This document shows, in pieces, positions 14,201 through 61,457 of a DNA stretch of 64,000 nucleotides; within the stretch, counting starts at the first letter, position 1; each line of letters starts with the position of its first letter. The notes beneath the pieces are model-generated. The model did no database searches, was not told the origin of the DNA, and saw only the letters and a list, made by a program, of their open reading frames with translations. Source of the stretch: a virus; IMG/VR virus record IMGVR_UViG_3300042448_002155, positions 32,001-96,000 of that record; one strand, given 5' to 3'. Made by a program: the position numbers and the translations under genes.

Positions 14201-17200
14201 TAAGAATTGTGCAAATCCCGTTCCATTTCCAGGATAAATATTTCTTTTATATAATTCAAGATCTACCTCTGCGCAAAAGTTGGACATTAGTTGTCCCATA
14301 CTTGTCATTATGGTGCCGTCTCCAAAAAATGTACTGACGGGATTTCTTTGGAATATATTTGTTGATAATTTAAATGTTGCTGCATTAGCTGCTCCGCCCA
14401 AATCGCCTTGTCCCGCATTGGAGTAGGCATTGGAAACAACATTTCTCAGTCCATCGGCTCTTTGTTTTTCAACTTCGTTAATTGGTTCATATAGCATTGT
14501 GCCGAAGTGTCTAATTCCAAAACGATTTTCGGAAAATATAGTTCCATTTGTCGCTCTAGCTAAAGCCTCTCTTGTTCTGGATGCGCCCATACTCAAAAGT
14601 CTAACCATTAAATCTCTTGGTTCAGAAAGATACATTCCAGTATCTACTCCACCATCAATTTTTCCAGAGTCACCTTTTTTATTTGTTGAGTTAACAACAG
14701 CGCCAAGTTCAATTGCGTCAGATTGGGCAGTAACAGTAACTATCTCTCCCTCTTCAACGTTGGTTATGACTCCGTTAAACAAAGTTTGCAAGGAATTTGG
14801 ATTTGATCCATAGCCTCCCCTGAGGTGAACTCTAACTCCTGGCTTTAATCTTATATTATTAATATCAACTACGTAGTCATTTCTCATTCCTGAGACAATA
14901 TTTTTAGCTATATTTAAAGTTCGGTCCAAGATAGCACTAATTCCGTCTATAGAGTTCAAGGGATCGCTATTAAAATCGTCATTTCGCGCATTAAATATAT
15001 CTGTAGATGGGCGTGTTGTTAGCTTTGAGTACATATTCGAAACTCTTAGTATTAGCGTATCTCCTAGTAAATCTTCAGATGATACAACTGAAAAATCTAT
15101 AACAGATTGAAGACCATAGAAATTATCAAACAGTTTGACTCCTGCGAACATTCCCCCTTCGTCTATTAGCCATAGCATGTAGGTCGGAAATGCTCTAAGC
15201 ATGCGCCCTGATATATCCCTGTACTGAACATCATTTAACATCTTTTCCATATGATTATTAAATGAGCCGTCGTAAGCTTTTTGATATTCGGACAATGGCT
15301 GAGCTCCACTAATTCCAGTCAAAGATTTATCACAACCAACGTCTGGAGTTTGCATGTCTTTCGTGTAATTGCTTTCAATTTTTTTTGCGCCATCAGATTC
15401 AATTGTAACATTAGTTCCATCTGCAGTAAGATAAAATCTTCCATTATCTTTATTTATATATCCGAAATGGGACCCCAAAGCGGTATACATAATTGCAGGT
15501 AGCTCGCTAGGATCATCTACCTCTGGATTGCCCAGTGGCATCAAATATATCATTTTATGAAATTCAACTTCGTCTGGATCAAAACTGACAAATTCCTCTT
15601 CGGCCAGTTTGCTGGTCGCTAATATAGTTTTGATCATATTTTCTGTTTCCCCGTTTGTCACTCCCACATTTCCTATGAGAAATGGTGATCCATTAATTTC
15701 TTCGAAAAGTGGGTCCCCTTCAGAGGATTGCGAAGCTAAAAATATAAAATCAGTTAATAAAGTATTTTTTGAAACGTCAGCGTTTGCTTCGTTGATTACT
15801 TCTTGAAAGATAGAAACAAAATTATGTGGACTAATTCCAGATTGATTTACGTAGTCTATTATTTCGTTAATTAAATCTTCATTGGTCTGTACCCTTGCAT
15901 CTACTGCAGCTGCGTTAGCTACGTTAGTTGTTGAATATCTTCTAAGAAAATTTCTAATTGTATATTTTACAGATTCTTTTTTTTGTGCTATTTCATTATC
16001 TGATCCCTGGAAGAAACCATCAGAGCTATCAAAAGTGAAATTTTTAGTTAAATCTATCTGAGTAGTGGTATTATTTATGATATCGCGATCAAACATTTCA
16101 AAACTTCTAAAATAGAAATCTGGATCTAGATTGCCAACAATATCTCCTTCCTTATTTTTGACGCCCAATGGAAGGTCTGGATAGGCATTGAATGATCCCC
16201 ATAGCTGCTTGATTCTTAGGAAGGGGTTTCTCTTTGTGCCAAAATGCTCAATTAATTCTGTCTGTTGCTTTGAGGATATTTTTTCTCTTTGTTGTTGGAA
16301 TATGTCAAAGTCTACCAAGCTCAACTGCACTGCATAAACGTGAGGAAAGTTAGGTATGGTGTCAACCTTATAGTTAAGGGGAAGAACATATTTAATTCCG
16401 CATAAAGCTGTTATGATATTTTTTATTCCCAAAAATCCTATAACACCAGTAGAATGCTCAAGCCTAGCTAACGCATTAGTGTGATCAAATACTGATCTAA
16501 TTTTTAATAATTCTTTTTCGCCAAAAACAGTCATCGATACATTAATATAGCTGTCTTTTCCTCCAATGTACTGATAACTTGGTTCGTCTTGCATTTGGAT
16601 CTGTAGCTTTGCTAGATTATTCCCCATTGATATACTAACGCCATTTACTATGGCGGTCTTTGGGTCAAGATCTACTCGATTCATTGGAACTTCCCACTCA
16701 TTGAAGTGGTAGTCTCCATCTTTTAATCTTGTTGCTTCCATCATATTTTTGATGAAGCCGTCAGTAAAAAATCTTTCATACATATTGACTTGAAAGGCTT
16801 CAGTAACTTGCTGTGCAATTTTTGCTCTATCTGGCTCTACTCCAGCGCTTTTAGTCTGTCTGACAAATTCCTCATCAATAAGTTTTTCTAAAATAGTTCC
16901 AGACGAACTAGCTTTAAGGTGAAGGTCTTTTTTGATATTGTTCAAACTGCCCTGAACTAATACTCCATTTATAAAGTATGACTCTGCCGTACTTTCATAC
17001 TGTGTAAAATAACCATTTACCCCGCGAAGCTCTATCTTTTCTTGATAATCTAAGAACCACCTTTTTTGTTCATTATCTAATCTTGTATCGTTATTGGATA
17101 TAAAGGATTGCGCTAGGTAAAGGTAAACTTTTTTATATTCATCAGTAGTCGAGATGCCAGCTGTCAGAATATCAATTGCTTGTCTAACCATATTCTTAAC

Positions 17201-19492
17201 AGATTTTGGAAAGTTTGATTCGGTAGCCATTGAATCAATATCTTTAATATCTTTTATTAAAGGAGTCTCTAAAGTTCTTTCTATCCCAAATGAATTAAGA
17301 AGTTTATCCCATAGCCCAGAAGCTGTATCGTTTAATATTTTTTCTTGTTCACTTCTAAAGGAAGTGTTGTCTGGTAAGAATATTTTTGTCTGTGTCTCAG
17401 CCGGAGTAAATAAAGTTATATTACTTCCGTCTCTCCATTGAGTAATTATGTTAGTCTCTAAAACGTCATTTTCAAAAGAATTTTTTCTTTCGATTTCAAA
17501 ATCTTCCCGCTGTTCCATCAAAGTAGATACGTCTACGCCTATATGTGTTCCATAGTCAATCACATCCACATTGGCCGTGTCGGAAACCTTACTGTCAGAC
17601 GTCTTCAATAAGAAGCTTTCGTTAACATATCTGTGCATTTCTCCAGCGGCTTTGCCCATATACTGACGATACTTACCCCAGTGTATTGCCTGATTAAAAT
17701 CTTTTAGCATCGGTAAGAATGGCTTGTGATTAAAGTGCACCATTTCCAAATCAATAACTAGAGCGAATGGATAATTTGGAACTGTTGATACTGACATATT
17801 AGAAAGTCCAACGGCAGTGATTCCATGTATTGAGTTAAGGTATTGATTCTTTACTGGTAGTATTGGCGAATATTTAAATGCTGCGACTAGACCTCTAAGG
17901 GAAGAAAGAAATTTATCTATTTTCTCTTCGTCATGTCCACCTTTTTTGAAGTCAATCTTAAAGCTTTCGTCTAGATTTATTGACGCTGCGTCATCTATGG
18001 ATAAGCCCCATATCTCTTCATAGTTAGGAAAGAAGAGCCGCATAGAAATAATGGTTTCTTTGTAACCTGCGTTAAACTTAGGAGTATTTTTTTGTCTAAT
18101 GGCTCCACCAGTTAATGATCCTGTTTTGTAATTAGAATTAACACTAATTGAAATCGGAGGAACGTAGAAGTTTGCTGCACCCAATCGAAGATGGAACATG
18201 TCTGGTTTTCTAGGTGGAATGTTTTCTCTAAAGGGAAAATCTTCAATTGCCTTTTTAATTTGTTGTGCGGTATTTTTTATCTGAAAAGCCAAGGTAAATA
18301 TTGGCCTATTATCTTTGGTGACTCCAAAAGCTCTTTCCAATGATATAATTGCATCAGCCTCATTGTTTAGCGTGTCTTCTGCTCCACCGCCTTGACCATT
18401 ATTGGAATAGTCCCCGACTACTGCTAGAGCATCAAAGACAAAGGTAACTAGGCTCGGAAAATAATAATTAATTATTGAAAATGATATTGGATCTCTTTGA
18501 AGGTTGTAAACTACTTCACTCAATATTGTTAACCACGGCGTATCTATTGCCGGATCAATATATTCATCCATTGATGTTTTAGCTGTTGCAACACTCTGCA
18601 GTCTTTTTTTTGCAAAGTTGCTAATTTCGTACGCGAATGACGCTAGGTACAGAAGTCCACTAGACTCTAGCTTAGCATAAACTGATTTAGAAGATGCCTC
18701 ATCCAAGCTTGAGGCAAGAGAGTTTAAGGAAAATACCCTACTAGTCGTCCCTTGAGCGTTGGCATCTGACACATAATCTTGACCTCTAGTCTCAGTAAAG
18801 TATCTACCTATTACTCCATTGATATCATTAGTCTCATTTACTGGATCGCTCCCGTATACATTATGTAAAAATATTTTAAATTCCGCTAAATATTCTAAGG
18901 TCAATTCGCCTTCAGTGTTGCCATCACTTAGTTCTTCATCTTTTTCTGATGTATTTATTTTTTCCGTTTGCTCAAGAGCAGCTAATTCCTCATCAGTTAT
19001 TCCGTCTTCACCTATATAACTTTTCCAGATATTAAGCCTGTCAAGAATAATTGACTTAGCTGTTTGCATTGTGATTTTTTTTGGAGAATTGTTAGGTAAG
19101 TAGGCGTAAAAAAACCAACTTAATGCTTCAGATAGTGTTGGAACATTTATGGTAGCATACCCGAAATTAACTGCCCATGTCTGAAATGTTTCAAGTACAA
19201 ATTCTAAATTTGAATCTTTATCTAAAACTTCGCAGTTTGCCAAACGAAGTATTGACAAATAGGCGTACTGGTCGCCTGTGCTTTTGAAGTCATCATCAAT
19301 TGCATAAATAAGGGCTTTTCCAGCTTGATTGTTATCGTAACCAATTATATCCGGATAATATCCTGGCAAAATTAAGAACGCGTACATATCGTTTTCATCG
19401 AAGCCCGTAATATCTTCAATTATTGAATTAATACGATCTTCATCTTCAGATAGATACTTTAAAAGATCTTTTGCTATTGGATTAATTGCCAT
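8228..19492 (-). CDS. Giant multidomain baseplate hub/tail protein (3754 aa) with gp27/late-control-D-like, RlpA-like and C-terminal thermonuclease domains
   Basis: GGELTLIGNPDIRPHDLVYL...GIFEVEQVVHHF (hub); GVRVHLRGGYGSN...LFNGVITNV; DGDT...RFDGINTGE...DVFDRILG...NWELVANNLA (SNase). Confidence 0.75.
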   Translation of the reverse strand: MAINPIAKDLLKYLSEDEDRINSIIEDITGFDENDMYAFLILPGYYPDIIGYDNNQAGKALIYAIDDDFKSTGDQYAYLSILRLANCEVLDKDSNLEFVLETFQTWAVNFGYATINVPTLSEALSWFFYAYLPNNSPKKITMQTAKSIILDRLNIWKSYIGEDGITDEELAALEQTEKINTSEKDEELSDGNTEGELTLEYLAEFKIFLHNVYGSDPVNETNDINGVIGRYFTETRGQDYVSDANAQGTTSRVFSLNSLASSLDEASSKSVYAKLESSGLLYLASFAYEISNFAKKRLQSVATAKTSMDEYIDPAIDTPWLTILSEVVYNLQRDPISFSIINYYFPSLVTFVFDALAVVGDYSNNGQGGGAEDTLNNEADAIISLERAFGVTKDNRPIFTLAFQIKNTAQQIKKAIEDFPFRENIPPRKPDMFHLRLGAANFYVPPISISVNSNYKTGSLTGGAIRQKNTPKFNAGYKETIISMRLFFPNYEEIWGLSIDDAASINLDESFKIDFKKGGHDEEKIDKFLSSLRGLVAAFKYSPILPVKNQYLNSIHGITAVGLSNMSVSTVPNYPFALVIDLEMVHFNHKPFLPMLKDFNQAIHWGKYRQYMGKAAGEMHRYVNESFLLKTSDSKVSDTANVDVIDYGTHIGVDVSTLMEQREDFEIERKNSFENDVLETNIITQWRDGSNITLFTPAETQTKIFLPDNTSFRSEQEKILNDTASGLWDKLLNSFGIERTLETPLIKDIKDIDSMATESNFPKSVKNMVRQAIDILTAGISTTDEYKKVYLYLAQSFISNNDTRLDNEQKRWFLDYQEKIELRGVNGYFTQYESTAESYFINGVLVQGSLNNIKKDLHLKASSSGTILEKLIDEEFVRQTKSAGVEPDRAKIAQQVTEAFQVNMYERFFTDGFIKNMMEATRLKDGDYHFNEWEVPMNRVDLDPKTAIVNGVSISMGNNLAKLQIQMQDEPSYQYIGGKDSYINVSMTVFGEKELLKIRSVFDHTNALARLEHSTGVIGFLGIKNIITALCGIKYVLPLNYKVDTIPNFPHVYAVQLSLVDFDIFQQQREKISSKQQTELIEHFGTKRNPFLRIKQLWGSFNAYPDLPLGVKNKEGDIVGNLDPDFYFRSFEMFDRDIINNTTTQIDLTKNFTFDSSDGFFQGSDNEIAQKKESVKYTIRNFLRRYSTTNVANAAAVDARVQTNEDLINEIIDYVNQSGISPHNFVSIFQEVINEANADVSKNTLLTDFIFLASQSSEGDPLFEEINGSPFLIGNVGVTNGETENMIKTILATSKLAEEEFVSFDPDEVEFHKMIYLMPLGNPEVDDPSELPAIMYTALGSHFGYINKDNGRFYLTADGTNVTIESDGAKKIESNYTKDMQTPDVGCDKSLTGISGAQPLSEYQKAYDGSFNNHMEKMLNDVQYRDISGRMLRAFPTYMLWLIDEGGMFAGVKLFDNFYGLQSVIDFSVVSSEDLLGDTLILRVSNMYSKLTTRPSTDIFNARNDDFNSDPLNSIDGISAILDRTLNIAKNIVSGMRNDYVVDINNIRLKPGVRVHLRGGYGSNPNSLQTLFNGVITNVEEGEIVTVTAQSDAIELGAVVNSTNKKGDSGKIDGGVDTGMYLSEPRDLMVRLLSMGASRTREALARATNGTIFSENRFGIRHFGTMLYEPINEVEKQRADGLRNVVSNAYSNAGQGDLGGAANAATFKLSTNIFQRNPVSTFFGDGTIMTSMGQLMSNFCAEVDLELYKRNIYPGNGTGFAQFLGGDLDDGWSTATSLVESDTKTLAGQRYLEAGTDRSWNRLIAEAQNGSVSSSNTIDSVVEDNKLVSAEGRAGAVKNALLGGFAAGIAAIPGVNVVAGLTGGAALGGLLRGRGGTNVFRTMGIIAPNADDDLSGFDEVSFRAQTYMRTVWDLFQICARLLPNYIVAVRPFEDRSTIFYGKPHWLYTSGVVPVTTGFPSVKKANELDLPGYPKHRSPDEDIQTIMNNINRQSNSMADYEAFKRSSELSDVMAALAKDQASSTGIYAPTERLTGKLLNFNSQLATKRVSKDSDGNDIVLSQLPASIGRVKMGFHLPIDGEKTYASLSVDHRQLDNIPPRFKYPYYTISEATVLDKKSYEVRDGGLFGNYVDDISGNQASTLSRVVDSVGGNFLGWFNPVSAAAKVVDSFEDGESNEAQLSNMSSKQNLQERISEANSKSFSIGGAALSANLIYFLQLEAEFLNETGITIKPSSGILELDRPLGFASFMAAVDSSVSDLIGLGQTTYSRMPLPSVESQGRPKEFVLVNSAKASTEENKDDFSFEYELSQPISYQEWGSPATAEEEQFYIAMRWPYKPDAVDASLERFKEVYGFEDLYGSAADYKKRKVLVFSPLTGRAVVCAPAYFLWGEGDDDVEAVVSPDAAWYLGTFVSTVDDKITIDGSQLAESLPAWANLSLHDGVGLENSILKKIEGETGLSTFPRDVDCFFGFVPDDTPLGVVSSGAAPVKRFFNDADKNSYIIGFGNFAIDDNGDANKFTASPKIIGPGDFGQPSVGDYFKLDGDKNSSLEEYSATNSEVTAYNYAYGGNILQSGDDPSYFQAIVDLDYDALDKGKLWDRLDAELYTTGDEETGSGRVGFAPVYSVLDSTSVEARSFYDENYDPNVSVIAGNGRTLSQASDIWDQFRFGYHTYDSVKAIFTRHYGMDADSTDPFPEEFRKILGGTNTTPFKKFSESIVSIPGLSTVGRSDATGVDELAILLGSDFFNAPDTTTDLGSGVGLNGASSRIEAVEFIRKNYIDYESKGIRGDAGIIQYFNSVITRSLDGIRSNFFESQVINNALSISIENKDDPAAAIKLAEVINTPKQLFLLMVGLFRQKLWSTGYGRAWLVLRPDRKRGFITPGGGGEDGQWSFKPVDKVFEAFISPYSQYAKNNDKFLKLLVSTKGEGSNSSTFIGGLDEDIGDFYSENIGPILGAIGDGLSSLLGMFKLSMMQMGYALSEVGNFSKQAHILNKVLNDSIYYSLGRPGTLLRAVDNPFTREYGEPVIEIRQPFQRIHYLSSFSHIISNQIQENLNNVSTVITAVSDGKNPVTVALDKGAPSERQTETTVETGLYYDNMVGSGFLGVLHPFMHPLESFRGYAKTLQGTPDELSARRVALSHLKESIKDIYGGELTLIGNPDIRPHDLVYLSDVYNRMYGIFEVEQVVHHFTSEMGYITTVTPNALVTVNDPSRWFMSSWLHSWLSMQNMRNDTRFYMDNIMASNTGINMGGNISIDALADSLSTQMIGGVQYTHGSSALMKDIMANQTALSLPDKALQEIESKGQGKASGADTIMQVVGASVARAVPIVGQLAWRGWTWLRDNVLDQHGCYVQYLNKNGQPMDAGLSYNQGMVVGRYHTKALLPGILGARTKVKTADGNTFIRSDDLLKSLGWQETEIKDLVRYTDYENALTHARVLSLSGLGPEKANLQTSLFKVIATVTKFNDGDTFDVEDVISGATFTVRFDGINTGETSPMKVGSIPDEPGADGTTITPISTPGGRAMLYTEAKLKNRVFVLRIKVTNKADTNVIFEAQFEPGATENRLENYTKDVFDRILGTVWYYQPESMINQIKDFVNQCFMLNRGKTIVTTDIDNPVTKEFFGKDFPGLGSIYKESPIFIKRSNIFDKIKSLDIQYAPPLSLSISALDDYGIPEQEFNRFYNDLVCFKVLEATYNKVDEWPTIFWDEYYEDGHPVSLNWELVANNLATVYTKQLLVESQSVISAEESALIPKQVTLNPGT

Positions 19493-19501
19493 TGCGCTTT
19501 C

Positions 19502-19951
19502 CTATTTAAACATCATATTGTTACGAATAATAGTTCTAAGTCTATCACTTGAAGAATCTTTCATAGTAATAGAACTATAGTTATCTATTATACTAGACTT
19601 TGTTTCTCTTTTGAATGAATCTAGAGTAAAACTTTGTTTTTTTGTTTGCAGGTCTTTATTGTATCTGGCTTGCTGATGTCTTTTTCCGCTATATCCACTG
19701 CCATTCATCTGGATATGCGTACTTGGAGCATTGTCTAGCCCCTCTTTGGAGTACTTGATTTTGTCAGATTTTCCTGATGACTCCATTTTTTGGCGCGATT
19801 CACCAACAACATTTTGCGATGGAGTTTTGCTTGAGACTATCTTTGCTGCGTACTTACTTGCCGTTAAGGATCTATGAGACGTATCTTTGGGTTGTTTAGC
19901 AGCAGCACTTAATGCTTTATTTTGGTCCTTGACATTTAAAATCATATACAT
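19502..19951 (-). CDS. Hypothetical basic (Lys/Ser-rich) protein
   Basis: 149-aa ORF co-oriented and tightly packed in the tail operon. Confidence 0.6.
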   Translation of the reverse strand: MYMILNVKDQNKALSAAAKQPKDTSHRSLTASKYAAKIVSSKTPSQNVVGESRQKMESSGKSDKIKYSKEGLDNAPSTHIQMNGSGYSGKRHQQARYNKDLQTKKQSFTLDSFKRETKSSIIDNYSSITMKDSSSDRLRTIIRNNMMFK

Positions 19952-19957
19952 TTAACC

Positions 19958-22900
19958 TTAATAAGATCGGGCTATCGATTGATATGGGTCTCTTGCCACA
20001 TCCGGGATTCTATTATACATAGTACTGTTAATACTCCCATTAGTGAGTCCCGATGCTGCTGCACTAAATTTTTGTATTTGGTCCCTATCGCCAAATAGGG
20101 AGACCTTATAATTCATGCCCGCAGTAAAGCCTTGACCTCGTGCCTGTGGAATTTCTGACATTCTCTTTGGATAGTCGGACTCATAAGCTGATCCTCCTGG
20201 CAAAAGGGGTGGGCCGGACATGGCTTCCTGAGTGTGATCTTTTTTGTTTTGATATAAAAAGCTAGCTGCTATAGCTATTCCAGCACCTATGGCTGCATTG
20301 CGGACTCCGGGTTTGGCGAACTGCTCTGCTAGATATTGTTTGTTCATTCTTTTGTACATCGATTGTGAGGCAGTTGATTTCTTTACCTGCGACAGGTCCC
20401 TAAGGGTGTCTGCAACAACTCCTGGAGTTGTTTCTGTTATATCATCTGCGGAAGAAAGAATTCTACTTGAAGCTAAATCTCCATTTAAGAAGGCTGCAGC
20501 TTCCTTGTCTGCCTGTGCATTCAATTCAAAGGCAGTTTTATTTCTTAGCGCTCTAGCTATTTGCTGTTCTTCCATAGTGCCTGCCCCTTCCTCGGCCTGG
20601 CCTTTTATGATTGATGAAATAACAGAAGAAGTTTTGCCTGTTCCAAAAAAGTCATCTGCAAAATCTAAGTCCAGCGCATCATCCATGATGCCTGCCTTTT
20701 GAGTATCGGACATATTGCCAAAAATGTCATCGACGTATTGTCTTAGTTGAAGGTTCTTAGTTGACTTTTCGTATATAGCCTTTTGATCTGACATTTGCAT
20801 ATACCTATGAAAGAGATTAAGGCTCTCATTGTCTATGTTTGTTGATGAGTCTGGAAGTTTTGTAAAAAACTCTGGAGCTATTTTTCTTCTTAATCCGCCA
20901 TATTGAAGGGCGCTAGTTAGTTCATACCCAGATATGCCCATTGATTTTTGCACGTCTTGAAGATTTCTTAGTAAATTATCTCCCAGTTCTATTTTTTTTA
21001 TCTCTAATGCTATTTTTGATGATTCTGCAAAAGAGCCACTTTGTATTTCGTCAGCTAAACTTTGTACTGCTTTTATTCTTTCTTGATTTTCGTCTAATAT
21101 TTTTTCTGCTGCAATTCGTGATCTTTCGCTTGTCCTGGAGACTAGCTCTTGTTCTTGACTGATTTGCGCATTTCTTCCCAGTTTTGCCATGGCTTCTAGG
21201 TAATAGTTTGAAGTATTAGCTACGTCTACTATCTCAGAGAGTGATCCTTTTGCTATAATTCCTCTGGCCCTTAAAACTTTTTCTACTTCGTCATATTGTT
21301 GAGATTCTACGGCTTTATTAATGTCAGTTACATCTGCAGCGTTGTCTGCCTCCAACATCCCTGCTGATAAACTTCTTGCAAAATTTATAAGATCATTCTT
21401 ATTCATTTTTTTACTAGTTAAGAAAGCTTCATCGAGTACAAGGGCCTTACGTGGATCCATTGGATCCATTCCATCAAGTTTGTGTTTTTGCCTTAAGTAA
21501 CCAAACATTTTTCCATACTGTTGCATTGTTTTGTCGCCAAAATCATTTAGGTTAGTTTCTTTTCCGTATAATTCTTTTAGTACTTTTACTCCCAAGTTTG
21601 GATCTCCATTTGCAAGCTTAGTAGTTTGCCCCAACAGCATTCGTCCAGATGTAAAAGTTTGCGTCATGTCAATGACGGTTTCAGCTGGAGTAAAAGCTAA
21701 CATTAGCTTCTTATTTATCAAGTCCTCTTGTATGCCAGGAATTGTCCCCAGCATGTCTTCCATCTGCCTTAGGCCATGTCCAACCACAGTAGCTCTATTA
21801 ATGTACTGTCCAAGGATGTTTGTATTTTCTATTGCTGAGTCAATACTCTTATTTATGAAAGATTTTCCTAGTGCAATACTTTTTTGTTCAGGGCTAATAT
21901 TTAACGCATTGACTGTCTTATAAAACTTATCTGATAAACTTTGTATTTCCCTATCGGCGTCTTCAAGATCAACTCCGCCTAAATTTAAACGATTTTTTCT
22001 TTGATCTTTTAATTCTTTCGTCATCTGTTGAAGTTGACTTTTTTGCGATCTACTTATCAGGCTCATGCTATCTAGACTTGATAAGACTTCTTGTTCGAGT
22101 GGCATTTCTGCCACTTCTGCCACTAGCCTCTGGAACCCAAGTGACATTAGTCCTGGATCTTGGTCACCTAAAGCGATTAATTTTGTTGCAGAGAAATGAG
22201 TAACTCCTTCTGTGCCATCGTCTAAAGTTCCAAAAACTCCTAATTTTTTAAAAAAGTTTTTATTAAAATCTCGCATTCCGCCAGTTCTAACACCATTGTC
22301 GAACTTAGCGCCGCTTAAGATGTCATTAACCTCAATGGTTAATTGTTCAATTGTACCCATCATTGAACTATTTATGACATCATCTGAAACTCCAGATCCG
22401 TCAAATGCCATTTTTAATCCAAGAAATTTAGAATCTCCTTTAGCCATCTCATCCAAAGTCTTCATAAAGAATCTATTGCCACCAAAAATTTCACGATAGC
22501 TTTCTATGTCCTCAAACCTAGTAAGGCCAATAACTTCGCCCATTGAAGTAGGCTGACGGACCATGGCGGCACCTAGTCTGCGCTTACCTTCAGACATATA
22601 GGTTCCAAGTATAGGCAATCCCTTATCGTCTAAGTCGAAACCTCCTAGTGCATGATAGAACTTTCTAATGTCATCTTCATGAAATAAAATATTATGATTA
22701 GAAACTCTGAACTGCGCAATCTGTGCGGAAATTTCATCGCCAGCTTCACCTATCGTTACCTTAATCGGCTTTCCTGATAATATCTTTGTTGGGTCAATGT
22801 CAATTGACTTTCCTGATAGCGTCTTTCTTCCAGTAGTTCCAGTCATTGCATTTGCTTCCGAGTTAAGAGCAAATCTATATACATCACCAACCACTGGAAG

Positions 22901-24811
22901 TCTCTGCCCATTTTTTGTTTTATACAACTCAGCTTCATAGTATTTTTTTAACAGATTTAAATATTCTGGAGAATCATTAATGCTTATACCACTTCTATGC
23001 AGATCTAAGATTCTTTGCGCAAAGTCTCTATTTAACATTTTTGAAAATTGCTGAGGTTCCGCAAACTGTTCAATATCTTGTTGTGCAAGTTTTTTAATCC
23101 CCTGCAAAACTTCACTGTTATCGGTTAAGCGCCCACTTTCCAATATCCCCTTAAATTCATCTAACACATTTCTTGAGTACTTGCTGGATATTGCTATATC
23201 TTCTGTGTTTCCAAATATTGCGTCATGGAAAGAAGCCAACATTGGGTCCGTGTACACTCTAGAAGTGGATTCAGCTAGTCCGCTTAGATTTAATACAGGA
23301 GTACCTGCTGCTATTCCTGTTTCTTTCTTTAATCCACTAATTGATGTTATGATTCCATACTTCTCAAATCTTTTTGAAAAATTTTTAAATTGAGCCGCTG
23401 ACTTATAAGAGTAATCAACACCGCCAATTCGCACAGAACCTCTAACCGTACCCTGAGATAAACCTATGGCCTCTCCGTCTTTTATATTTAGCTCAGATAA
23501 CTGCCTTCTTAATTCAACCTTACGAATCATTGATTGTTCATCCCTATTTTGGGTTAGACTCCCCAATTCTTGGTGCAAGGTTTTTCTTAATTCACTTGCA
23601 AATTTTGTATTGATTAACGATGAACCATCTCGACCTTTCTCCAACTCATCTAGCAGGCTCTTAATAACTCCGCTTGTTTCATCATCAATTAAACTTGAAT
23701 TGTTAGGGTCGTTTAGGAACTTTTTTATTTCATTGGTGCCGAATATGCCCTTATCGGAGTCATTCTTTCCGTCTCTAATAATATCTTTTACGAGATTTTC
23801 TAGTGAATTAAGTATTTTTGTTTTATCTAAATTTGACGTCGGTGTTGTCCGAGATTTAATTATTTCATCTAATACATTATTAACATAACTGCTTGCTTCT
23901 TCAACCGCTGTTCCGCCACCCTTATACTGAAAAGATTCTTCCATAAATGCTCTTACGTCAAATTGCTTTGTGCCTAGGGCAAAGTTCTTAGCGGTGTCCT
24001 GATCAAAGCCTAAGGCTATTGTCTCAAACACATTGTCCATAGCAAGAGTGGCTTGTGATAATTCATCCATTATTCCTTTAGGCCCAAAAACTGTAGGCTT
24101 GCTCAGGAACGATTTCATGAGGTCTCCGGATATGGAAATATCTCTTGGAGAAAGAACACCTTTTAATCTTTTTGGAAGCTTTGCAAATAATTTAGATAAG
24201 CCTTCGTTTCCACCTTTTAATGCTTTATCTAATTCGTCTGGAGTGAACAAAGGTCTTCCGCCTTTGGACATTGCCTCTAGGGTTTCCTCCATTGACAATA
24301 CTCGATCACCTTGGCGAAGACTAAGAGCCATTCCACCCTCATCGGTAGGAAATATTAATCCAGCCTTTTGATTTTTCATGTCCTGAAGGAATTTTCCAAT
24401 ACTTTCAGAGCCAGCTTCTGCTTTATGAATTTTGATTTGAGCACCGTATTGCTGATCTCCAGTCAACCCTAATGCTTCATTAATATCCATGAGCACCTGC
24501 CCGTAACCCCTGTACGTGGAAGGGCCAAGAGTTCCTGGCTCGATATTTACTAGCTCAGTCAATCCAAAGCTAGATACATGCTGCGCAACCTCTTCTATTG
24601 AATCGGATACGAACTGTGCTGATTGGCCTGCCTTTAGCCTTAGGGGGTCAATGTAGGTTGATTTAAATTTTAATTTTCCGTCAACATCAACAACTTCTAT
24701 CAATCCTTTTTGGCCAAGATAGCTTTTACTTAAAGCCTGTTTGGCTAAAAGTAATCGTCTCTCCCTTGGCATGGGAGATAGGTATGACTGAATATAATCA
24801 GATACAGACAT
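19958..24811 (-). CDS. Large virion protein with putative single-subunit two-barrel RNA polymerase-like core and C-terminal hydrophobic segment
   Basis: Ordered motifs RDGSSLI, R-IGG...YK, SGLKKE, GGFDLDD, RQPT..GE, LGQYIN, ETVID; hydrophobic AAIGAGIAIAASFLY near the C-terminus; TAATG overlap with the tape measure gene. Confidence 0.55.
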   Translation of the reverse strand: MSVSDYIQSYLSPMPRERRLLLAKQALSKSYLGQKGLIEVVDVDGKLKFKSTYIDPLRLKAGQSAQFVSDSIEEVAQHVSSFGLTELVNIEPGTLGPSTYRGYGQVLMDINEALGLTGDQQYGAQIKIHKAEAGSESIGKFLQDMKNQKAGLIFPTDEGGMALSLRQGDRVLSMEETLEAMSKGGRPLFTPDELDKALKGGNEGLSKLFAKLPKRLKGVLSPRDISISGDLMKSFLSKPTVFGPKGIMDELSQATLAMDNVFETIALGFDQDTAKNFALGTKQFDVRAFMEESFQYKGGGTAVEEASSYVNNVLDEIIKSRTTPTSNLDKTKILNSLENLVKDIIRDGKNDSDKGIFGTNEIKKFLNDPNNSSLIDDETSGVIKSLLDELEKGRDGSSLINTKFASELRKTLHQELGSLTQNRDEQSMIRKVELRRQLSELNIKDGEAIGLSQGTVRGSVRIGGVDYSYKSAAQFKNFSKRFEKYGIITSISGLKKETGIAAGTPVLNLSGLAESTSRVYTDPMLASFHDAIFGNTEDIAISSKYSRNVLDEFKGILESGRLTDNSEVLQGIKKLAQQDIEQFAEPQQFSKMLNRDFAQRILDLHRSGISINDSPEYLNLLKKYYEAELYKTKNGQRLPVVGDVYRFALNSEANAMTGTTGRKTLSGKSIDIDPTKILSGKPIKVTIGEAGDEISAQIAQFRVSNHNILFHEDDIRKFYHALGGFDLDDKGLPILGTYMSEGKRRLGAAMVRQPTSMGEVIGLTRFEDIESYREIFGGNRFFMKTLDEMAKGDSKFLGLKMAFDGSGVSDDVINSSMMGTIEQLTIEVNDILSGAKFDNGVRTGGMRDFNKNFFKKLGVFGTLDDGTEGVTHFSATKLIALGDQDPGLMSLGFQRLVAEVAEMPLEQEVLSSLDSMSLISRSQKSQLQQMTKELKDQRKNRLNLGGVDLEDADREIQSLSDKFYKTVNALNISPEQKSIALGKSFINKSIDSAIENTNILGQYINRATVVGHGLRQMEDMLGTIPGIQEDLINKKLMLAFTPAETVIDMTQTFTSGRMLLGQTTKLANGDPNLGVKVLKELYGKETNLNDFGDKTMQQYGKMFGYLRQKHKLDGMDPMDPRKALVLDEAFLTSKKMNKNDLINFARSLSAGMLEADNAADVTDINKAVESQQYDEVEKVLRARGIIAKGSLSEIVDVANTSNYYLEAMAKLGRNAQISQEQELVSRTSERSRIAAEKILDENQERIKAVQSLADEIQSGSFAESSKIALEIKKIELGDNLLRNLQDVQKSMGISGYELTSALQYGGLRRKIAPEFFTKLPDSSTNIDNESLNLFHRYMQMSDQKAIYEKSTKNLQLRQYVDDIFGNMSDTQKAGIMDDALDLDFADDFFGTGKTSSVISSIIKGQAEEGAGTMEEQQIARALRNKTAFELNAQADKEAAAFLNGDLASSRILSSADDITETTPGVVADTLRDLSQVKKSTASQSMYKRMNKQYLAEQFAKPGVRNAAIGAGIAIAASFLYQNKKDHTQEAMSGPPLLPGGSAYESDYPKRMSEIPQARGQGFTAGMNYKVSLFGDRDQIQKFSAAASGLTNGSINSTMYNRIPDVARDPYQSIARSY

Positions 24812-27800
24812 TATCTAACACCGGCATTAATATCAATTTGCTCCGATCCAAAAGGATTCATAACTGGGATAACAGACCCTGATACTCCCATGCCACTCAT
24901 GAGTGATCTCAATCTTGATGCGGTGTCCGTTTGAGATCCAGATCCACCACCAAATCTAGGATAGCTAGGATTAGATAAACTAGCTTCCTGTAGCTGTTGA
25001 GGATAGTAACCCATCTGCGACATTTCTAGACCCATGCTTTGACCAATTTTTATTTTAACTTGATCCATACTAGTGTTTGGGTGCCAACCCTCCCAGCTTT
25101 CATCTGGTAGTTCGTGTCTAGCAAAGTAGTCAGTTAACTCTGGCCTCTTCTCTACATCCATACCCCAGGCTGCTTCATATATTCTTCTTTCAAGCCTTCC
25201 TGCTGTATCTAATATTCTTTTTCTTTCCTCTACGGGAGCATTAATCATGGCTTTAAAATGTTCTCTTTTTCTTTTGGGTATAGATAGAGAAAGCGATTCT
25301 ACATCAGTTCCATATTTTCCTGAATTTATATCTTCTATTGGAGCGCCGTACATTGTTCTCTTAGCCGCCGATTCATACTGGAAAGCTGCTCCCTTATCTC
25401 CAGCCATGTTAGCCATCTTAGCTAATCTAGTATTTTTAGTATAATTTAAAATGTCTGCATATTCTTCTAACGCAAGTTCTTTCTTTCTCGTTCTTGGTAT
25501 AAACTTTTCTCCAGTAATGGCCTCATTGGCCGAATGCAATGATGAGACGGTAAGCCCTGTTATTGCTCCTAATGTGGACATCACCAATTTACCCTTAGAG
25601 GTTTCTCCGAAAAATGAACCAGCTACTGCTAATGCAGCTGTTGCAGATATAGGATCTCTATTGCCAGCCTTATTTATCATTGGGGCTATGAAACTTTCAA
25701 AAGGTCTTTGCCATTCTGGGAAGGTTGCCCCGTATACGTTATTTCTTTCCCAATCCTCAGTTGCAGTTTGTTTGTTTACAAACTTCTTATTAATAAAAGT
25801 GTCTTTATGGGCCAGCATTTCGCCCATTCTGCCAAGAGCATGTACATTTGGATTAACGCCCATTTGCTCTGGAGTACTATTCTTGTATTTATATTCAGTA
25901 AATTCTTTTTTCTGTTGTAATGACGCTGATCGTTCTCTGAGTTCTTGAACTTTTAATTTATCTGCGGGGCCGTTCACCATCGAGTCTATGGTTTTATCTA
26001 GCGATCTGAATTGCTTTGAATACGGGGCAACATCGCCAAGTATCTTATATTGATCCATAACCCCATAGCGACCAGAGGCATCGGAGCTGAGTCTATTTAG
26101 TCTTTCATAGGCTACTCCTGGTAGTCTAAGTTCTCCTTCTGGGACTTTTGCAAACGGGTCACCCGTGGTAAAGTCAGTAAAGTATTCTGACCCAGGAAGA
26201 AATGGATACTGTCTTCCCATTGTATTCTTAATTGGGTTTATATAATCAACGCCAGATCTTTCTTTGGGTATAAATCTTCTTGTTATTTCGGAAAACTCGA
26301 TAGAACCTATTTGGCCTCCGCCTAACATAGGCACGTCCCCCAGGCCTCCTAGGTTCAGATCCCAAAATTGTCTTCCAGTTCCATACGCTTTAGAGGCTGA
26401 TTGTAATACTGATCTTTGAGGTGCAAAATCTCTTTGGCCTAATCCAAAACTTTCTCGCACACTGCTTGCTGCGAAACCATAAATTCCTAACATTTCTTGA
26501 GCCCTATATCCAAATTCTTGTGCTTGGATTTGTGGGTTACCAACACTCAATGGACTGCCAGCAGGTACGATTCGTTGGGGCATAATTCCAGATACTTTAG
26601 GTGGGCCATAAGCCATCTGCATGTATTGATTATTTATACCTGATATTGTATTTCTAGTTTCATTTCTTGCGGTGTTAAGGGATCCAGCCCTTCCTGCTAA
26701 CATTGCGTTAGAAGACGCCTGTGCGCCGTTTGGAGGGCCTCCAAAGCCTCCCATGGTCATTCCACCAGCAACTCCGCCCATACCGCCAAAAACGCCACCT
26801 CTGCCGTTAATGTATGGGTCTGCATTATATGCTCCAGACTGACCAGCCGGTGCATAGTTAGCTAGGCCTGCTGCCACTTCCTGTTGGTGCATCATCGTTT
26901 GAGGTTTCAGTATTTTACCGACAGTAGCATTTAAGGCTGGAACAAGAGGTCCGAATGGTCCACTGAAATATTCGCCAGATACAGGATATGGCCTATCTTC
27001 AAAATGCTTTCGCTCATAGCGATATGGATCAAATGGCCTAAGCGGAGAAATATCAGTATGGAACAATGCTCTTTCTATTGGGCTCCCCATATTATCTGAG
27101 GTAAACATTGCTCCAGCTTCTAATTTTCTGTATATACTTGGGCGGTAGTACATAATTTTTCCACCCATAAATGGAGTATTGCCTAACGGCCAAAACCGGC
27201 CTTGCCTAATAGCAACTTCGCCCTCAAATAATTGTTCTTTCTTTTCTTGAAAATTCATTCCACCGGGAGTAATGCCAGAACCAAGAGCTTGCAGATTTCC
27301 TACTGCTTTAGCAGCTCCGCCGATAAAGAATGGCGAGTAAACCCTTTCTCCCCTATCGTCCTTTTCATTGACCATGCCACCGATAGTTCTATCGACGGTC
27401 ATTACTCCTAAGCCAGCGCCATAAAGTGGTAGAACTCTTTTGCCCACCATTCCACTTGTAAATAGACCTATGGGAGAACCATATTGTGAGACATTAAGCT
27501 GTAAGCCAATAGTTCCAAAATATTTATTTAATCTTTCAATGCTATGCGACATTGCCGTAGATGCGCTGGAGTAGCTTTCTACGCTACTGTAGGTATTAAT
27601 TCCTAGTGCGCTTTTAACAGCGCCATATGGATTTTTGGCAAAGACGGTTCCAAAGGTTGGAACTAGAAGAGTGTCAGTTGCTGGACCCATAGCTGACCCA
27701 AGAGCATCACTAGATGATTCCGATATTCGGTAGGGGGCTGTGCTAAGTCTTGGATAAAGTGCTTTTTTGATTAATCCAGACTTTCCTACTTCTCCTATTC

Positions 27801-30800
27801 TTTGTGAGGTTCCAGTGACAAAAGGATCCAGTAAACCTTCAGCGCCCTTAAGAGTCTCTGCAGTGTTTCTTAACGCTCCTCTCTGTACTGCCAATTCGCT
27901 CAGTCCAGCTTTATTTGCTCTCATGGAACTTATATTGAATAGCGTAGCGAGTCCGGCGGCTTGTGCTTCTGCTAGCTGGCCAGGTGGCAGTTCTTTAGCC
28001 ATTGCGGTAAGAACATTGTTTAGCTCAATGAAAGTATTGGAGAAATTTTTTCCAGCTGCCCCAGCTGAGCTCGATGCTAGTAGCTCATTTCTTTGAATTA
28101 AATATTTATATAACTCGTCCTTGAGTGCATCTTCTCTTGTTAAGATTGTCGGGCTTGTAGATCTAATATGAGATCCTGAAAGTAGGTCATCTTTTTGTAG
28201 CAGATTTTGGATCCTGCTACCCGCCTGCTCCAGCGTCTGAGTTTCGTATCCCATTTGTCTTATTCTTGAAGCGTCGTGAAACCTTGCCTGAAGAACGTCG
28301 TTAGCAAATTGCTGAGTATCTTGAACATTATTAAGAGAAGAAACTCTTCTACCATTAAATAATCCTATGCCAGAATCCTCAAGGCGCGTCATTACTCTTC
28401 TTGGGAATGGATTTTTGAAGGATTGATTTCTGAAGTTTTCAAATGCACGCAACATTTGGCCTTCAGTAATCATTTCCTGTCCAGTGCCGGGAGATATACC
28501 TGTAACTGCGCCAGTATCATCTGCGAAGTTTAATTTGAACTGCTTACCCTTGGCTTCGACTGTTTCATTCTTAAGAAGACGCGCAAAAAAGGCTGGGTTT
28601 TCTGGATCAGTTTTTCTTTTTGCAAATCTTGACAACATGCGCCCAATTGAATTGGGTTGCTCATAATCAACGTCAAACTTCTGCCTGAGGGCCAGTTCTC
28701 TTTCTGGACTAACTCCAAGCCTCTTTAATAGATTTGATCTATTTTTACCATCAGCAAATTCTAATTCATTAAGCGATTTAGCCTTACCCTCTGAGGCTGC
28801 GTTTCTAGCAGACCTTGAGAGCATTTCGTTACTTCTTCTTGAGAGTGGCCTATAAAAACCTTGTAGTTCTTTTGCTTCGAATTCACCCGTAAGCGATCCC
28901 TGCTTAAAAGCCATTACATTGCTTTTACTTTTACCTCCACCATATGATAGATAAAAATCTGCGCCTTGTTCTCCCTTGGGAAGGAATGGTTGAGATATCT
29001 TGCCCTGTTGTATTTGAAAAAATGTACTTCCTGACATTTCATCAAATGAACCCTTTCCAAGCATTCGTGCTGGGTTGAAGTTGACTATGGGAATTTTTAA
29101 ATCATTAGCTAAAAAGTTACCAATGTTTGATACAGATTGTTTTAGTCCAGAAAAATCTAATACATTTCCAGATCGAGTAGTGTACATACCTTTCATTACG
29201 GAAACGCTAGATGATGTAGTGGTCGGGTCTGCTAACGCCATCCTCTTAGAGATTTCACCAAGTGCGACTCGTTCGTCTGCCCCAAGCCCCGCAAACAGAC
29301 CTTTGCTAACTCCTTCATCTAGGGTCATAGCTTTTAGTCCGAATACATTAAAGCCACCACTAAATATACCCGTACCTATTTGTTTTTCTCTAACTAAGAA
29401 ACTTCTTAGGCTGTCTAAATTGTCGGTATCTAAACCTCTTTTTCCTAACCTTTCAGCCAGTACTGCATTAGATACTTCTCTGCCGTTTGCATCTTTTAGA
29501 TTAATGCCTAATCTCTGTGCTGATCTTTTAATTAAAAAATCTTTTTTAGAAACTGATAAATTATTTAAATCTGCAAAGTCTTCAAAGTTTGCTTTTTTAG
29601 TTTTTAGAACTTTTGACGCTGCTCGAGGAATTCCATTCTCTAGTACAGAGTTCCATCCCTTTTCTGCCTTTGACATTATCGCGGCTTGAAATTCTTTTCC
29701 TTCAAATATTCTATTAGTATTTTCTATAGATGTTTTCAGGGCGTCCGTACTAAGAAAGCCTCCCTCAATCGGATCATCTACTGTTGTTGAAAATCTTTTT
29801 AATATTTCATCAAAAGCGTCGTCGCCCTCTTTTATGATTTTAGTTTTGCCAATAGTTATTTTTCTGCTAGTTTCCGTAGCTGAACTACTAACACTTATAT
29901 CATCTATGAATTTTCCTAACGTTTCAGAAAATCCCTGTCGGCTAGAGTTAGGTGTTAAATCTAATATTTGCTTTTGAAGTAGCTTCTTATATTCTACCTG
30001 CTCTATTGATCTATGGAATTCTGAACCACTAAACGACTTACTTCCAACTCCTCCGCCTCCAGTATTAGCTATCTTATTAGCTAGCCTAGATGTACCGCTA
30101 GAAAAGTTTGCTTGCACAGACTTAACTATGCCGACTAGGTCATCGGATGTCATTCCATCTTTACGTAGTGCCCCGCCCTTACGTAGTGCTGCATCAAAGC
30201 TTAACGCTTTATTTACTACGTCATATCCAATTCCAGTTTCTTTGAATTTGTTTACACCCTGATTGACTGCTCCGCCGACTCCCCTTAGTCCGGGTATTAG
30301 ATCTACATAACCAAAATTACCATCTGCCCCATCACCAAACGCTAACCTTCGACCAAATATAGCAGCCCTCTTTAAGGTATTATCATCTGCAGAGTTCGCT
30401 AAAGCCTGTCTAGCGTTGGTATTTCTTACGCTATGCAGGACTTCAGTTATGTTTGGACGGTTTTCGTAATACTTAGTCGTTGCTGCTCTAATGCCCGCTG
30501 AGGTTTGAGAGGAAACTTTTAAAGCCTGGTTTGTTATTTTACCTAAGTCATGACCTACTTCTCCAAGAATATCATCTAAGTCAGTGAATCGCTGAGCTGC
30601 TTTTGTCTTAAAGGAACTAACCCCAGACGACCTTGCAACGTCTCCCATTGATTGCCTGAAGTTATGAAGAGATGATCTTGCATTGCCTGCTGCTGCCCCA
30701 GCTAACTCAAATGGCAGGATCATAGTAGCTAAAGCTATTGATGATTCTTTAATAAAATCTGTAACAACATCTACTGGATTGTACCAATTAACCTTAGGCT

Positions 30801-32737: not shown

Positions 32738-33673
32738 CTACCCTCTCTGTAAATTGCCCACTGTAGATGTCGTTGTTGCCGCAGCTGCAGCTGCTTCTGC
32801 TGTTGCAGAAAGGTTAGAGGCTACGCCAGACTTAATGAACGAAAGGTCACCTTCAGTGAAATAGTGATCTCTTGCCATGAATTGGTAGCTTTCGCCAATA
32901 GGTTGACCACCCGGCCCGTATGCTATTGACATATTTGTCAAATTTATTTCCTGTATCACTATTTTCATGGGATTGACAATTCCATCTGACTTGATAGTTC
33001 TTTGGTTGACGTCAGAAATCATCATTCTGTCTATATTGTCGGAAATATTAATATCTTCAGATTGATATAAATTTAATGGAGACAATGCTACTTCTTCCAA
33101 CCCATATACTATAATTAAATTAAATGGTGGATGAGCGCTAAAAATATTTCTATTGGAATTTTCTATATTCTTAGCGAAGGGATCATCTGTTATTCTGTCA
33201 AGCTGACCTCTAGCCCAATACTTCTCTACTAACTTTTCTTCTTCTTCTGTTTCAAAACTAGATCTTAAATCAGATATCGTTCCATTAGTTGAACGGTTTT
33301 TTCTTTCTGTGCGAGCCCTAACAGCGGCTGCTTTTTCTAAAAGCTCTGTCATTCGTCTCGGATACTTAGAAAACATTGTCATTTCTCCGGTAATAATTCT
33401 AGTACCGTACATCATGGCATCATAGTTATAGGACCAGAATCCATATAGCGGCTGCTTTTCTTGTCTTACGTTAAAGGCAAAGCTGGCAATATCTAGTTCA
33501 TCTTCAGGAGAGAATAATCCGTCTATATATATTCGGATATCTTCTCCGCTGAAATAATAATCATAATAATTACTAAAGCGTAGATCGTCCTTTTTACCAC
33601 CGCTCCACAAGGAGTCTATTGTTTCATGGAGAGGATCGTACTCTCTCATGTTATTTGTGTTTCTAATTGTCAT
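32738..33673 (-). CDS. Tail tube-like protein, paralogue 3
   Basis: YFSGEDI...FNVRQEKQPLYGF...GTRIITGEM...PPFNLII; similar to the two upstream tube genes. Confidence 0.7.
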   Translation of the reverse strand: MTIRNTNNMREYDPLHETIDSLWSGGKKDDLRFSNYYDYYFSGEDIRIYIDGLFSPEDELDIASFAFNVRQEKQPLYGFWSYNYDAMMYGTRIITGEMTMFSKYPRRMTELLEKAAAVRARTERKNRSTNGTISDLRSSFETEEEEKLVEKYWARGQLDRITDDPFAKNIENSNRNIFSAHPPFNLIIVYGLEEVALSPLNLYQSEDINISDNIDRMMISDVNQRTIKSDGIVNPMKIVIQEINLTNMSIAYGPGGQPIGESYQFMARDHYFTEGDLSFIKSGVASNLSATAEAAAAAATTTSTVGNLQRG

Positions 33674-34455: not shown

Positions 34456-34466
34456 ATGTTTCTCCT

Positions 34467-34508
34467 AAAAATAAAAAGGTGCATGGAAGAAGCCTCCCAT
34501 GCACCTTT
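34467..34508 (-). terminator. Rho-independent terminator after the major tail tube gene
   Basis: Minus strand AAAGGTGCATGG-GAGGCTTCTT-CCATGCACCTTT followed by TTATTTTT. Confidence 0.9.
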
Positions 34509-34527
34509 CACATAAAATTACACTCTA

Positions 34528-50984: not shown

Positions 50985-51008
50985 CTTCTTCTCCACTTTA
51001 AAAACTAC

Positions 51009-61455: not shown

Positions 61456-61457
61456 AA

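Follow-up and report, generated by a model that had tools for sequence, protein, structure and literature searches.

Which protein is encoded by the long open reading frame (ORF) that lies among the tail genes of a large uncultured phage, in the place where a tape-measure gene would be expected? We examined this ORF, designated P0001, in a window of 64,000 nucleotides, which is the whole stretch of DNA analyzed here and corresponds to bases 32001-96000 of the 113.7-kb IMG/VR record IMGVR_UViG_3300042448_002155 (CheckV completeness 54%). The 1617-residue frame had earlier been left unannotated. An original prediction, made by inspection of the sequence, had proposed that it encodes a virion-packaged, single-chain RNA polymerase of the two-barrel type with a variant and perhaps permuted active site, located beside the tape measure. 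The motif positions given with that proposal all agree with the ORF once residue numbers are converted to window coordinates. Our analysis favors, at a probability of about 0.6, the reading that P0001 is a single-polypeptide two-barrel RNA polymerase of an undescribed family, which would travel in the virion and, once ejected, transcribe the earliest phage genes.

Predicted fold of the P0001 core

The region of P0001 spanning amino acids (aa) 370-1170 was modeled with AlphaFold2. In this first model, with a predicted local distance difference test score (pLDDT) of 75, every match extending over more than approximately 185 residues was to a two-barrel RNA polymerase, i.e., to an enzyme built on two double-psi beta-barrels (DPBBs). 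A model restricted to the core (aa 381-800; AlphaFold2 model m2ff7193a8ef6) was constructed from a more diverse alignment and reached a pLDDT of 88.3 and a predicted template-modeling score (pTM) of 0.85. For an unbiased comparison, the core model was aligned to one representative of each PDB sequence cluster, or 48,161 chains. Only five chains gave a Z score of 5 or more, and all five are single-chain two-barrel RNA polymerases: QDE-1 (Z 7.3, with 257 residues aligned), P74-26 gp62 (6.2), maize RDR2 (5.9) and two crystal structures of P23-45 gp96 (5.8 and 5.7).

When candidates from Foldseek were aligned individually with VIA-align, Arabidopsis RDR2 (Z 8.5) and QDE-1 (Z 8.0) were highest, and their alignments covered 228-257 residues at 14-18% identity. 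Eleven entries for RNA-dependent RNA polymerases (RdRPs) or QDE-1 occupied the top of this ranking, and the next score was Z 4.2. The virion polymerase gp66 of the crAss-like phage phi14:2 aligned over 264-267 residues at Z 3.6-3.9. In the Foldseek searches themselves, two-barrel polymerases held the top ranks with both models (best E values of 7.4e-3 and 0.13), and a library of viral structures returned crAss-like phage proteins at E of approximately 7e-3 as well as three uncharacterized phage proteins of 850-1140 aa at approximately 4e-8.

The first barrel precedes the second in the core model, as it does in QDE-1, and in the longer model the alignment to QDE-1 reaches chain residue 1148. 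By these predictions, aa 381-800 are shown to take up the two-barrel superfamily fold, with both barrels present in A-then-B order. The proposed single-chain polymerase fold is borne out, at moderate scores, by both models and by the structural alignments. A chance resemblance is unlikely in view of how specific the list of matches is, how much the alignments cover and how the two models agree. An all-helical tape-measure structure was also considered for aa 370-1170, but was rejected on the predicted fold of this region, which is mixed alpha/beta and globular and contains the two barrels.

Conserved residues and the predicted active site

P0001 belongs to a family that was found exclusively in metagenomes, of which one search recovered 55 clusters and an exhaustive HMMER search 129 representative clusters; 154 stretches in IMG/VR match P0001, and full-length homologs are mostly approximately 1500-1750 aa long. 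An ESM Atlas feature search with the P0001 core was uninformative (scores below 0.8). Conservation was counted across 106 diverse homologs, which were collected with HMMER without a motif filter and extend down to approximately 22% identity. In this set the motifs singled out in the original prediction proved to be the most conserved columns of the family rather than chance occurrences. G723, D726, D728, D729, R752, P754 and E759 are present in all 106 sequences, and D395, G396, K470 and K495 are each present in 105, whereas R457 and R646 occur in 101 and 100, respectively. Farther along the chain, G1001, N1005 and D1048 are invariant in a 32-sequence alignment of full-length members.

Every two-barrel polymerase shares a set of eight residues (PMC2919709). 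In QDE-1, the first barrel contributes D709, R738 and K743, and the second R962, P964, D1007, D1009 and D1011. The structural alignment of the core model with QDE-1 spans from model residue 5, paired with residue 701, to model residue 358, paired with residue 1020, and that with gp66 ends at model residue 357, paired with residue 1373. Provided that no gap intervenes near the end of these alignments, D729 pairs with QDE-1 D1011 and with gp66 D1365, the Asp that closes the DFDID loop of the latter protein. The same reasoning from alignment end points places D395 within approximately two residues of QDE-1 D709. From motif order, R457 and K470 (the latter encoded at 23402-23404) would correspond to QDE-1 R738 and K743. 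D395, R457 and K470 are found in the superfamily order and on matching elements of barrel A.

The variant metal motif, DxDD, is a property of the whole family, being present in 106 of 106 sequences, and may be read as a DxDGD loop from which the Gly has been deleted. R646, in the sequence YRFALNSE, is located approximately 80 residues upstream of this loop, with a variable insert between the two. For comparison, the YonO-like protein gp99 of Bacillus phage 0305phi8-36, the closest cultured relative as judged from capsid and terminase, carries FRSPLIHKSE 44 residues upstream of its own loop, and a paralogous family described below reads FRAT at the Arg position. R646 may thus be the canonical Arg, still in place, in a motif that has lost its Pro.

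An invariant RQP is found 23 residues past the DxDD loop, and it was this order that had suggested a permuted barrel. The suggestion did not hold up: circular permutation is unsupported because the alignments to QDE-1, RDR2 and gp66 are sequential and cover both barrels, and the conserved R646 lies upstream of the loop. All three alignments end just past the strand that follows the Asp loop. The hairpin that contains R752-Q-P754 and E759, with strands at model residues 363-373 and 380-385, corresponds to the RxPNGxGE motif of the paralogous family; in the simplest reading of the model, it would be an addition after the barrel and not a displaced strand. Toward the C-terminus, the sequences ILGQYIN and AETVID of P0001 fall within a predicted helical region marked by LGxY(V/I)NR and ExxID, for which the YonO-like counterparts are SIGEITN and SIDFAKTG. 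This is a candidate for the bridge-helix region.

Position of P0001 in the tail operon

In phage 0305phi8-36, gp146 is a virion protein, as demonstrated by mass spectrometry, and tail length was the ground on which it was published as the tape measure; the two-gene tail chaperonin is encoded one gene away, and only the last 60 residues of gp146 are conserved in relatives (PMC2147016). According to the annotation of that phage, gp145 is also a virion protein by mass spectrometry, of unknown role, and gp147 is the hub gene. Since the genes that flank P0001 are homologs of gp145 and gp147, P0001 occupies the slot of gp146, i.e., that of the tape measure. Specifically, it is found between the tail chaperonin genes and the hub, with the gp145 homolog interposed as in 0305phi8-36.

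P0001 had been described as coupled to, and encoded beside, the tape measure. Its location in the tail module and its translational coupling both stand, and the upstream 2207-aa ORF does share a TAATG stop/start overlap with P0001 at position 24811; however, the 2207-aa neighbor is the gp145 homolog, and it is P0001 itself that sits in the tape-measure slot. An ESM Atlas search with this neighbor pointed only weakly to a tape-measure cluster (0.86). The overlap with the preceding gene amounts to 1 nt, and a gap of 6 nt separates P0001 from the next gene. The gene order orf311, orf184, orf209, orf2207, P0001, orf149 and hub is kept in 66 of 66 related IMG/VR loci, wherever the contig reaches. 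This fixed place in the tail operon is strong contextual evidence that P0001 would be tail associated and ejected.

Two other properties of the gene were noted. Across the 66 loci, P0001 is the most diverged gene of the block, with tblastn E values of 1e-37 to 1e-66 in the distant ones; its two giant neighbors (2207 and 3754 aa) give E = 0 in all loci whose contig covers a sufficient part of the gene. Fast divergence is a known property of tape measures. In addition, the protein had been said to end in a hydrophobic segment. A Gly/Ala-rich segment is indeed present at aa 1505-1520, but it stops approximately 100 residues short of the C-terminus, and its best 19-residue Kyte-Doolittle mean, 1.25, is under the usual threshold for transmembrane segments. 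A likeness of this segment to the C-terminus of gp146 was perceived by eye, and hhalign of the C-terminal third gave it no support.

A distant paralog and a repeated upstream motif

A hidden Markov model of the P0001 family, searched against all ORFs of the 113.7-kb genome, found P0001 alone. Beyond the window and apart from the structural module, the same record encodes a second polymerase-like protein, P0177, whose motifs follow the order seen in P0001 (DG, GR..KG, AKTE, FRAG, HDGDD, RIPNGAGE and GQLCN). For the family to which P0177 belongs, the order is DG, GRG..KG, LKxE, FRA, HDxDD, RxPNGxGE, GxxCN and VDATQQ, and both DxDD and RxP are invariant. Alignment by hhalign of the 106-sequence P0001-family core with the core of the paralog family gave a probability of 93.4% (E = 2.5e-7) across 270 collinear columns, which extend from the basic loop through FRA to DxDD and RxP; the paralog came to light only in this profile-profile comparison, as the match was weaker with a 32-sequence P0001 profile (E = 4e-4, 34% probability). 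Members of the paralog family are stand-alone proteins of 800-1000 aa or are fused to PIF1-type helicases or to other domains, including PF08719. The paralog core is present in three of four near-complete related genomes, and a tblastn search of one family member against 50,697 phage records returned nothing.

P0177 is a single open frame with unrelated N-terminal parts, among them a weak match to 2OG-Fe(II) oxygenases at aa 396-469. The start assigned by the ORF finder is probably 38 codons early, the likely true start being MKVSTTT. In a related complete genome, a possible third polymerase-like gene was observed as an 873-aa ORF at G003:C1:161593-161946, which matches the DxDD region of the paralog at E = 1e-6 and lies beside the main, 898-aa match.

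Immediately preceding P0177 is an array of seven cassettes (Table 1), each with a copy of the motif GAKKATAGRYC (TTTTGAKKATAGRYC). The seven copies are all on the plus strand, within 2.3 kb upstream of P0177, and the 113.7-kb record contains no others; the copy nearest to P0177 is positioned 44 nt before its ATG. We regard the motif as a candidate promoter for a phage polymerase. Genes for a ClpB/AAA_2-type ATPase (L002:5054-6478, minus strand), a full-length RecA (E = 1e-117; L002:7025-8122, plus strand) and a rhomboid-domain protein (L002:11135-11878, plus strand) are found beside the array.

Proposed role of P0001 and alternative explanations

In the mechanism that we propose, P0001 would be made together with the tail proteins of a contractile-tailed phage of approximately 200 kb, packaged into the particle and ejected together with the phage DNA, after which it would transcribe the first phage genes. 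The DxDD loop would bind the catalytic Mg2+, R457 and K470 would hold the RNA 3' end and the nucleoside triphosphate, and the RQP...E hairpin would constitute a family-specific addition near the active site. Early genes, including that of the non-virion paralog, would be transcribed by P0001 from the repeated GAKKATAGRYC motif. Because P0001 sits in the tape-measure slot of 0305phi8-36, it may itself be a tail-lumen or tape-measure protein, as in P23-45. It would be a new variant in the two-barrel superfamily, outside the described families, given that PF05183 does not detect it and that it departs from the published form at two of the eight universal residues. A broader proposal, to which we would give roughly even odds, is that a widespread uncultured lineage of approximately 200-kb contractile-tailed phages, related to 0305phi8-36, transcribes its own genes with two diverged, paralogous two-barrel RNA polymerases of a new family (DxDD loop, Pro lost, RxP...E hairpin), the virion copy of which, encoded in the tape-measure slot of a myovirus, would pass along the tail together with the DNA.

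Several observations weigh against this assignment. No sequence method ties the P0001 family to any known polymerase: searches of Pfam (to E 0.1), PHROGs and PDB sequences with P0001 and with the family profile gave no match, the profile searches of PDB sequences being empty; tblastn of P0001 against the 50,697 phage records found nothing, and no cultured relative has the gene. The Pfam RdRP model PF05183 finds 0305phi8-36 gp99 (69 bits, E = 1e-20) and nothing in this genome, and hhalign of either the P0001 family or the paralog family with gp99, as a single sequence or as a 19-sequence profile, came back empty. Among the structural results, no Foldseek match in the PDB reached E ≤ 0.001, and the scores are moderate (Z 7-8.5, root-mean-square deviation 4-5 Å, template-modeling score 0.2-0.4). 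The proposed residue equivalences depend on alignment end points and on motif order. Within the active site, the canonical DxDxD spacing is not kept, as D726-L-D728-D729 is one residue shorter in every one of the 106 sequences, and RxP is without its Pro, position 648 (two after R646) being Ala, Ser or Gly and never Pro. A globular core of approximately 750 residues also fits poorly with a tape measure of the classical, all-helical kind. Finally, both the packaging and the activity of P0001 are what we infer from sequence and gene context.

These observations leave room for four other explanations. The two-barrel fold and active site might serve a different activity, such that P0001, injected or not, would be an RNA-dependent polymerase, an enzyme that makes primers for replication or another nucleotidyl transferase. 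This would fit with the RNA-dependent nature of the best structural matches, RDR2 and QDE-1, with the non-canonical metal loop and with the frequent fusion of paralog-family members to PIF1-type helicases, which suggests a link to DNA metabolism. We nevertheless consider it unlikely: the characterized phage members of the clade, gp66, gp96, gp64 and, as reported, YonO, are all DNA-dependent transcriptases; QDE-1 itself is reported to have both DNA- and RNA-dependent activity (PMC9508822); and PolD-type DNA polymerases are absent among the matches of the 48,161-chain comparison. It is also conceivable that P0001 is chiefly a structural protein of the tail lumen, or the tape measure, with a polymerase-derived domain that is catalytically dead. 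Its location in the published tape-measure slot, a rate of divergence that much exceeds that of its neighbors and is itself tape-measure-like, a fairly constant length, a conserved C-terminal module and the loss of both the DxDxD spacing and the Pro would all be in keeping with such a role. However, the Asp triad, R752, P754 and E759 are invariant, and D395, K470 and K495 nearly so, in homologs as distant as approximately 22% identity; this is the pattern of a working active site. The globular, mixed alpha/beta prediction for aa 370-1170 is likewise not that of an extended helix, and a dead, structural protein seems quite unlikely.

P0001 could, in principle, be an active polymerase that remains in the cell, made late and placed in the tail operon incidentally, since a gene in a late structural operon would be expressed late in any case and packaging is deduced. 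Its identical position in all 66 loci, wherever the contig reaches, between homologs of proven virion proteins and in translational coupling, makes this very unlikely; moreover, a separate non-virion paralog already exists, and an enzyme that is made late would have to be brought into the next cell to be of use for early transcription. That the resemblance to two-barrel polymerases is an artifact of modeling, or of a common arrangement of strands, appears highly improbable. The alignment tool's own note warns that chance can produce Z scores below approximately 8, and no Foldseek match in the PDB attains E 0.001, but two independent models lead to the same family of matches, and the high-coverage matches all come from one superfamily, with a gap in the ranking from Z 8.5 to Z 4.2. 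The conserved residues are, in addition, located on those elements that bear the catalytic residues of the superfamily, and in the same order.

We therefore retain an injected two-barrel RNA polymerase as the preferred reading of P0001. If it is correct, a family that keeps the fold with a shorter metal loop and without the Pro would test how much of the 'universal' site (PMC2919709) is required. P0001 would also be the first virion two-barrel polymerase in the tail module, and in the tape-measure slot, of a contractile-tailed phage; the siphovirus P23-45 provided the only tape-measure-fused example in the literature searched. Such an enzyme would explain how a group of large uncultured phages could begin infection independently of the host polymerase. 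Enzymes of this kind are probably under-counted, because they are invisible to Pfam, to PHROGs and to BLAST against 50,697 phage genomes.

The late operon and its phage

All large genes of the window are on the minus strand and are ordered like a myovirus late operon (Table 1), with sheath, tube, chaperonin, giant-protein, hub and wedge genes in order around P0001; the wedge gene, which is P2 gpJ-like, comes after the 3754-aa ORF in operon order. By capsid (38-42% identity) and terminase (30-38%), the nearest phages are Bacillus phage 0305phi8-36, Moorella phage MTATph1 and a few other jumbo myoviruses. The genes in the tube position match phrog_9206, which is labeled 'major head protein'. Judging by their position and by the tube/tube-paralog pair of 0305phi8-36, it is more likely that they encode tail tube proteins and that the PHROG label is misleading. 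The 3754-aa hub-like protein is approximately twice the size of 0305phi8-36 gp147, and contains a lysis-type domain at aa 1412-1666 and weakly hydrophobic segments at aa 1015-1033 and 1840-1867.

Table 1. Features of the P0001 locus and of the paralog locus. Positions are those of the window; positions prefixed L002 lie past the window end.
Feature	Position	Strand	Remarks
P0001, 1617 aa	19958-24811	-	Candidate virion two-barrel RNA polymerase
P0001 N-terminal region, aa 1-380	23672-24811	-	D157, K211, K214 and R215 invariant
P0001 predicted two-barrel catalytic core, aa 381-800	22412-23671	-	AlphaFold2 model and structural alignments
D395-G396	23624-23629	-	Proposed counterpart of the DPBB-A Asp (QDE-1 D709)
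Basic loop, R457...K470	23402-23443	-	Proposed counterparts of QDE-1 R738 and K743; beta-hairpin of the first barrel
K495, LKxE motif	23327-23329	-	Family-specific conserved Lys of the first barrel; aligns to NLKxE of the paralog family
R646, VYRFA	22874-22876	-	Proposed canonical Arg of the second barrel (QDE-1 R962, Rpb1 R446), without the Pro
Predicted metal-binding loop, G723-G-F-D726-L-D728-D729-K730 (DxDD)	22622-22645	-	Asp triad in 106/106
R752-Q-P754...E759	22535-22558 (RQPT 22547-22558)	-	Extra beta-hairpin past the last barrel strand; family signature
Helical region, LGxY(V/I)NR (G1001, N1005) and ExxID (D1048)	21668-21814	-	Candidate bridge-helix region; helices in the first model
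P0001 C-terminal module	19961-20299	-	Gly/Ala-rich, moderately hydrophobic segment (aa 1505-1520), then GPPLLPGG and a conserved tail
Terminase	59602-61461	-	Late operon
Portal	49320-50996	-	Late operon
Major capsid protein	44621-45685	-	Late operon
Sheath	35217-36455	-	Late operon
Two tube-like genes	33670-35190	-	Between sheath and chaperonin-like genes
Two tail-chaperonin-like genes, 209 aa and 184 aa	31449-32636	-	BLASTP of 184-aa ORF: gp143 E 9e-17, gp144 E 9e-9
2207-aa gene	24811-31434	-	0305phi8-36 gp145 homolog, BLASTP E 2e-47
149-aa Ser/Lys-rich gene	19502-19951	-	Between P0001 and hub in every related locus that is long enough
3754-aa baseplate-hub-like giant	8228-19492	-	Cell-wall-degrading domain; phrog_20474 E 1e-119; gp147 BLASTP E 6e-24
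Seven cassettes	L002:11887-14270 (genome 107,887-110,270)	+	Each a G+C-rich terminator hairpin and T-run, then TTTTGAKKATAGRYC and one short gene
P0177, paralog	L002:14267-17713	+	Runs off the contig end; polymerase-like core in the C-terminal part

Comparison with known two-barrel polymerases

The two precedents named in the original prediction, phi14:2 gp66 and P23-45 gp96, are confirmed by the papers that describe them; the functional class of virion-delivered phage RNA polymerases also includes those of N4 and of phiKZ-like phages. P23-45 gp96 is a virion RNA polymerase fused to the tape measure of a siphovirus, a 5002-aa protein with a canonical DFDGD loop, for which activity and packaging have been demonstrated; it transcribes the pre-early genes, including that of a paralogous non-virion RNA polymerase (gp64), from its own promoter (PMC10770324). 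Structures of gp96 and gp64 are available (PDB 8H2M, 8H2N, 8F72 and 8F5M), and P74-26 gp62, one of the five top matches of the core model, is a close homolog of the P23-45 non-virion enzyme. P0001 is similar to gp96 in that a single-chain two-barrel core is encoded in the tape-measure position of a tail module, with structural matches to gp96 and gp62 at Z 5.7-6.2, and the two systems share the presence of a distant non-virion paralog in the same genome, probably the product of an old duplication. The proposed scheme, in which the virion enzyme would serve pre-early genes and among them that of the second polymerase, would be common to both as well. Unlike gp96, P0001 belongs to a myovirus, is 1617 aa long, carries the DxDD loop and the extra RxP...E hairpin, has no detectable sequence similarity to gp96 and is a virion enzyme by prediction. 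DxDD motifs were not found in the supplements of the P23-45 paper, nor did a literature search find a 'DxDD' RNA polymerase in phage.

The second precedent, gp66 (Drobysheva et al.; PDB 6VR4), is a virion-delivered single-chain two-barrel RNA polymerase of 2180 aa from a podovirus and belongs to the QDE-1-like clade. It shares with P0001 a large single-chain two-barrel core and a metal loop that also lacks the Gly (DFDID), although gp66 keeps the DxDxD spacing and its structural similarity to P0001 is weak. The best structural matches of P0001, QDE-1 of Neurospora and RDR2 of plants (PF05183), have in common with it the order of DG, basic loop, Arg and Asp loop; in contrast to P0001, which PF05183 misses, these proteins have DxDGD and RxP and an unrelated biological role, in RNA silencing. 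YonO of SPbeta and gp99 of 0305phi8-36 retain the canonical DxDGD and RxP as well, and gp99 is both PF05183 positive and encoded outside the structural module. Like P0001, however, they are single-chain phage enzymes of the two-barrel type, and the local motifs of gp99 and P0001 can be set side by side along the chain: GGADTDGDK and GGFDLDDK, FRSPL and YRFAL, IGEITN and LGQYIN, and IDFAKT and IDMTQT, respectively.

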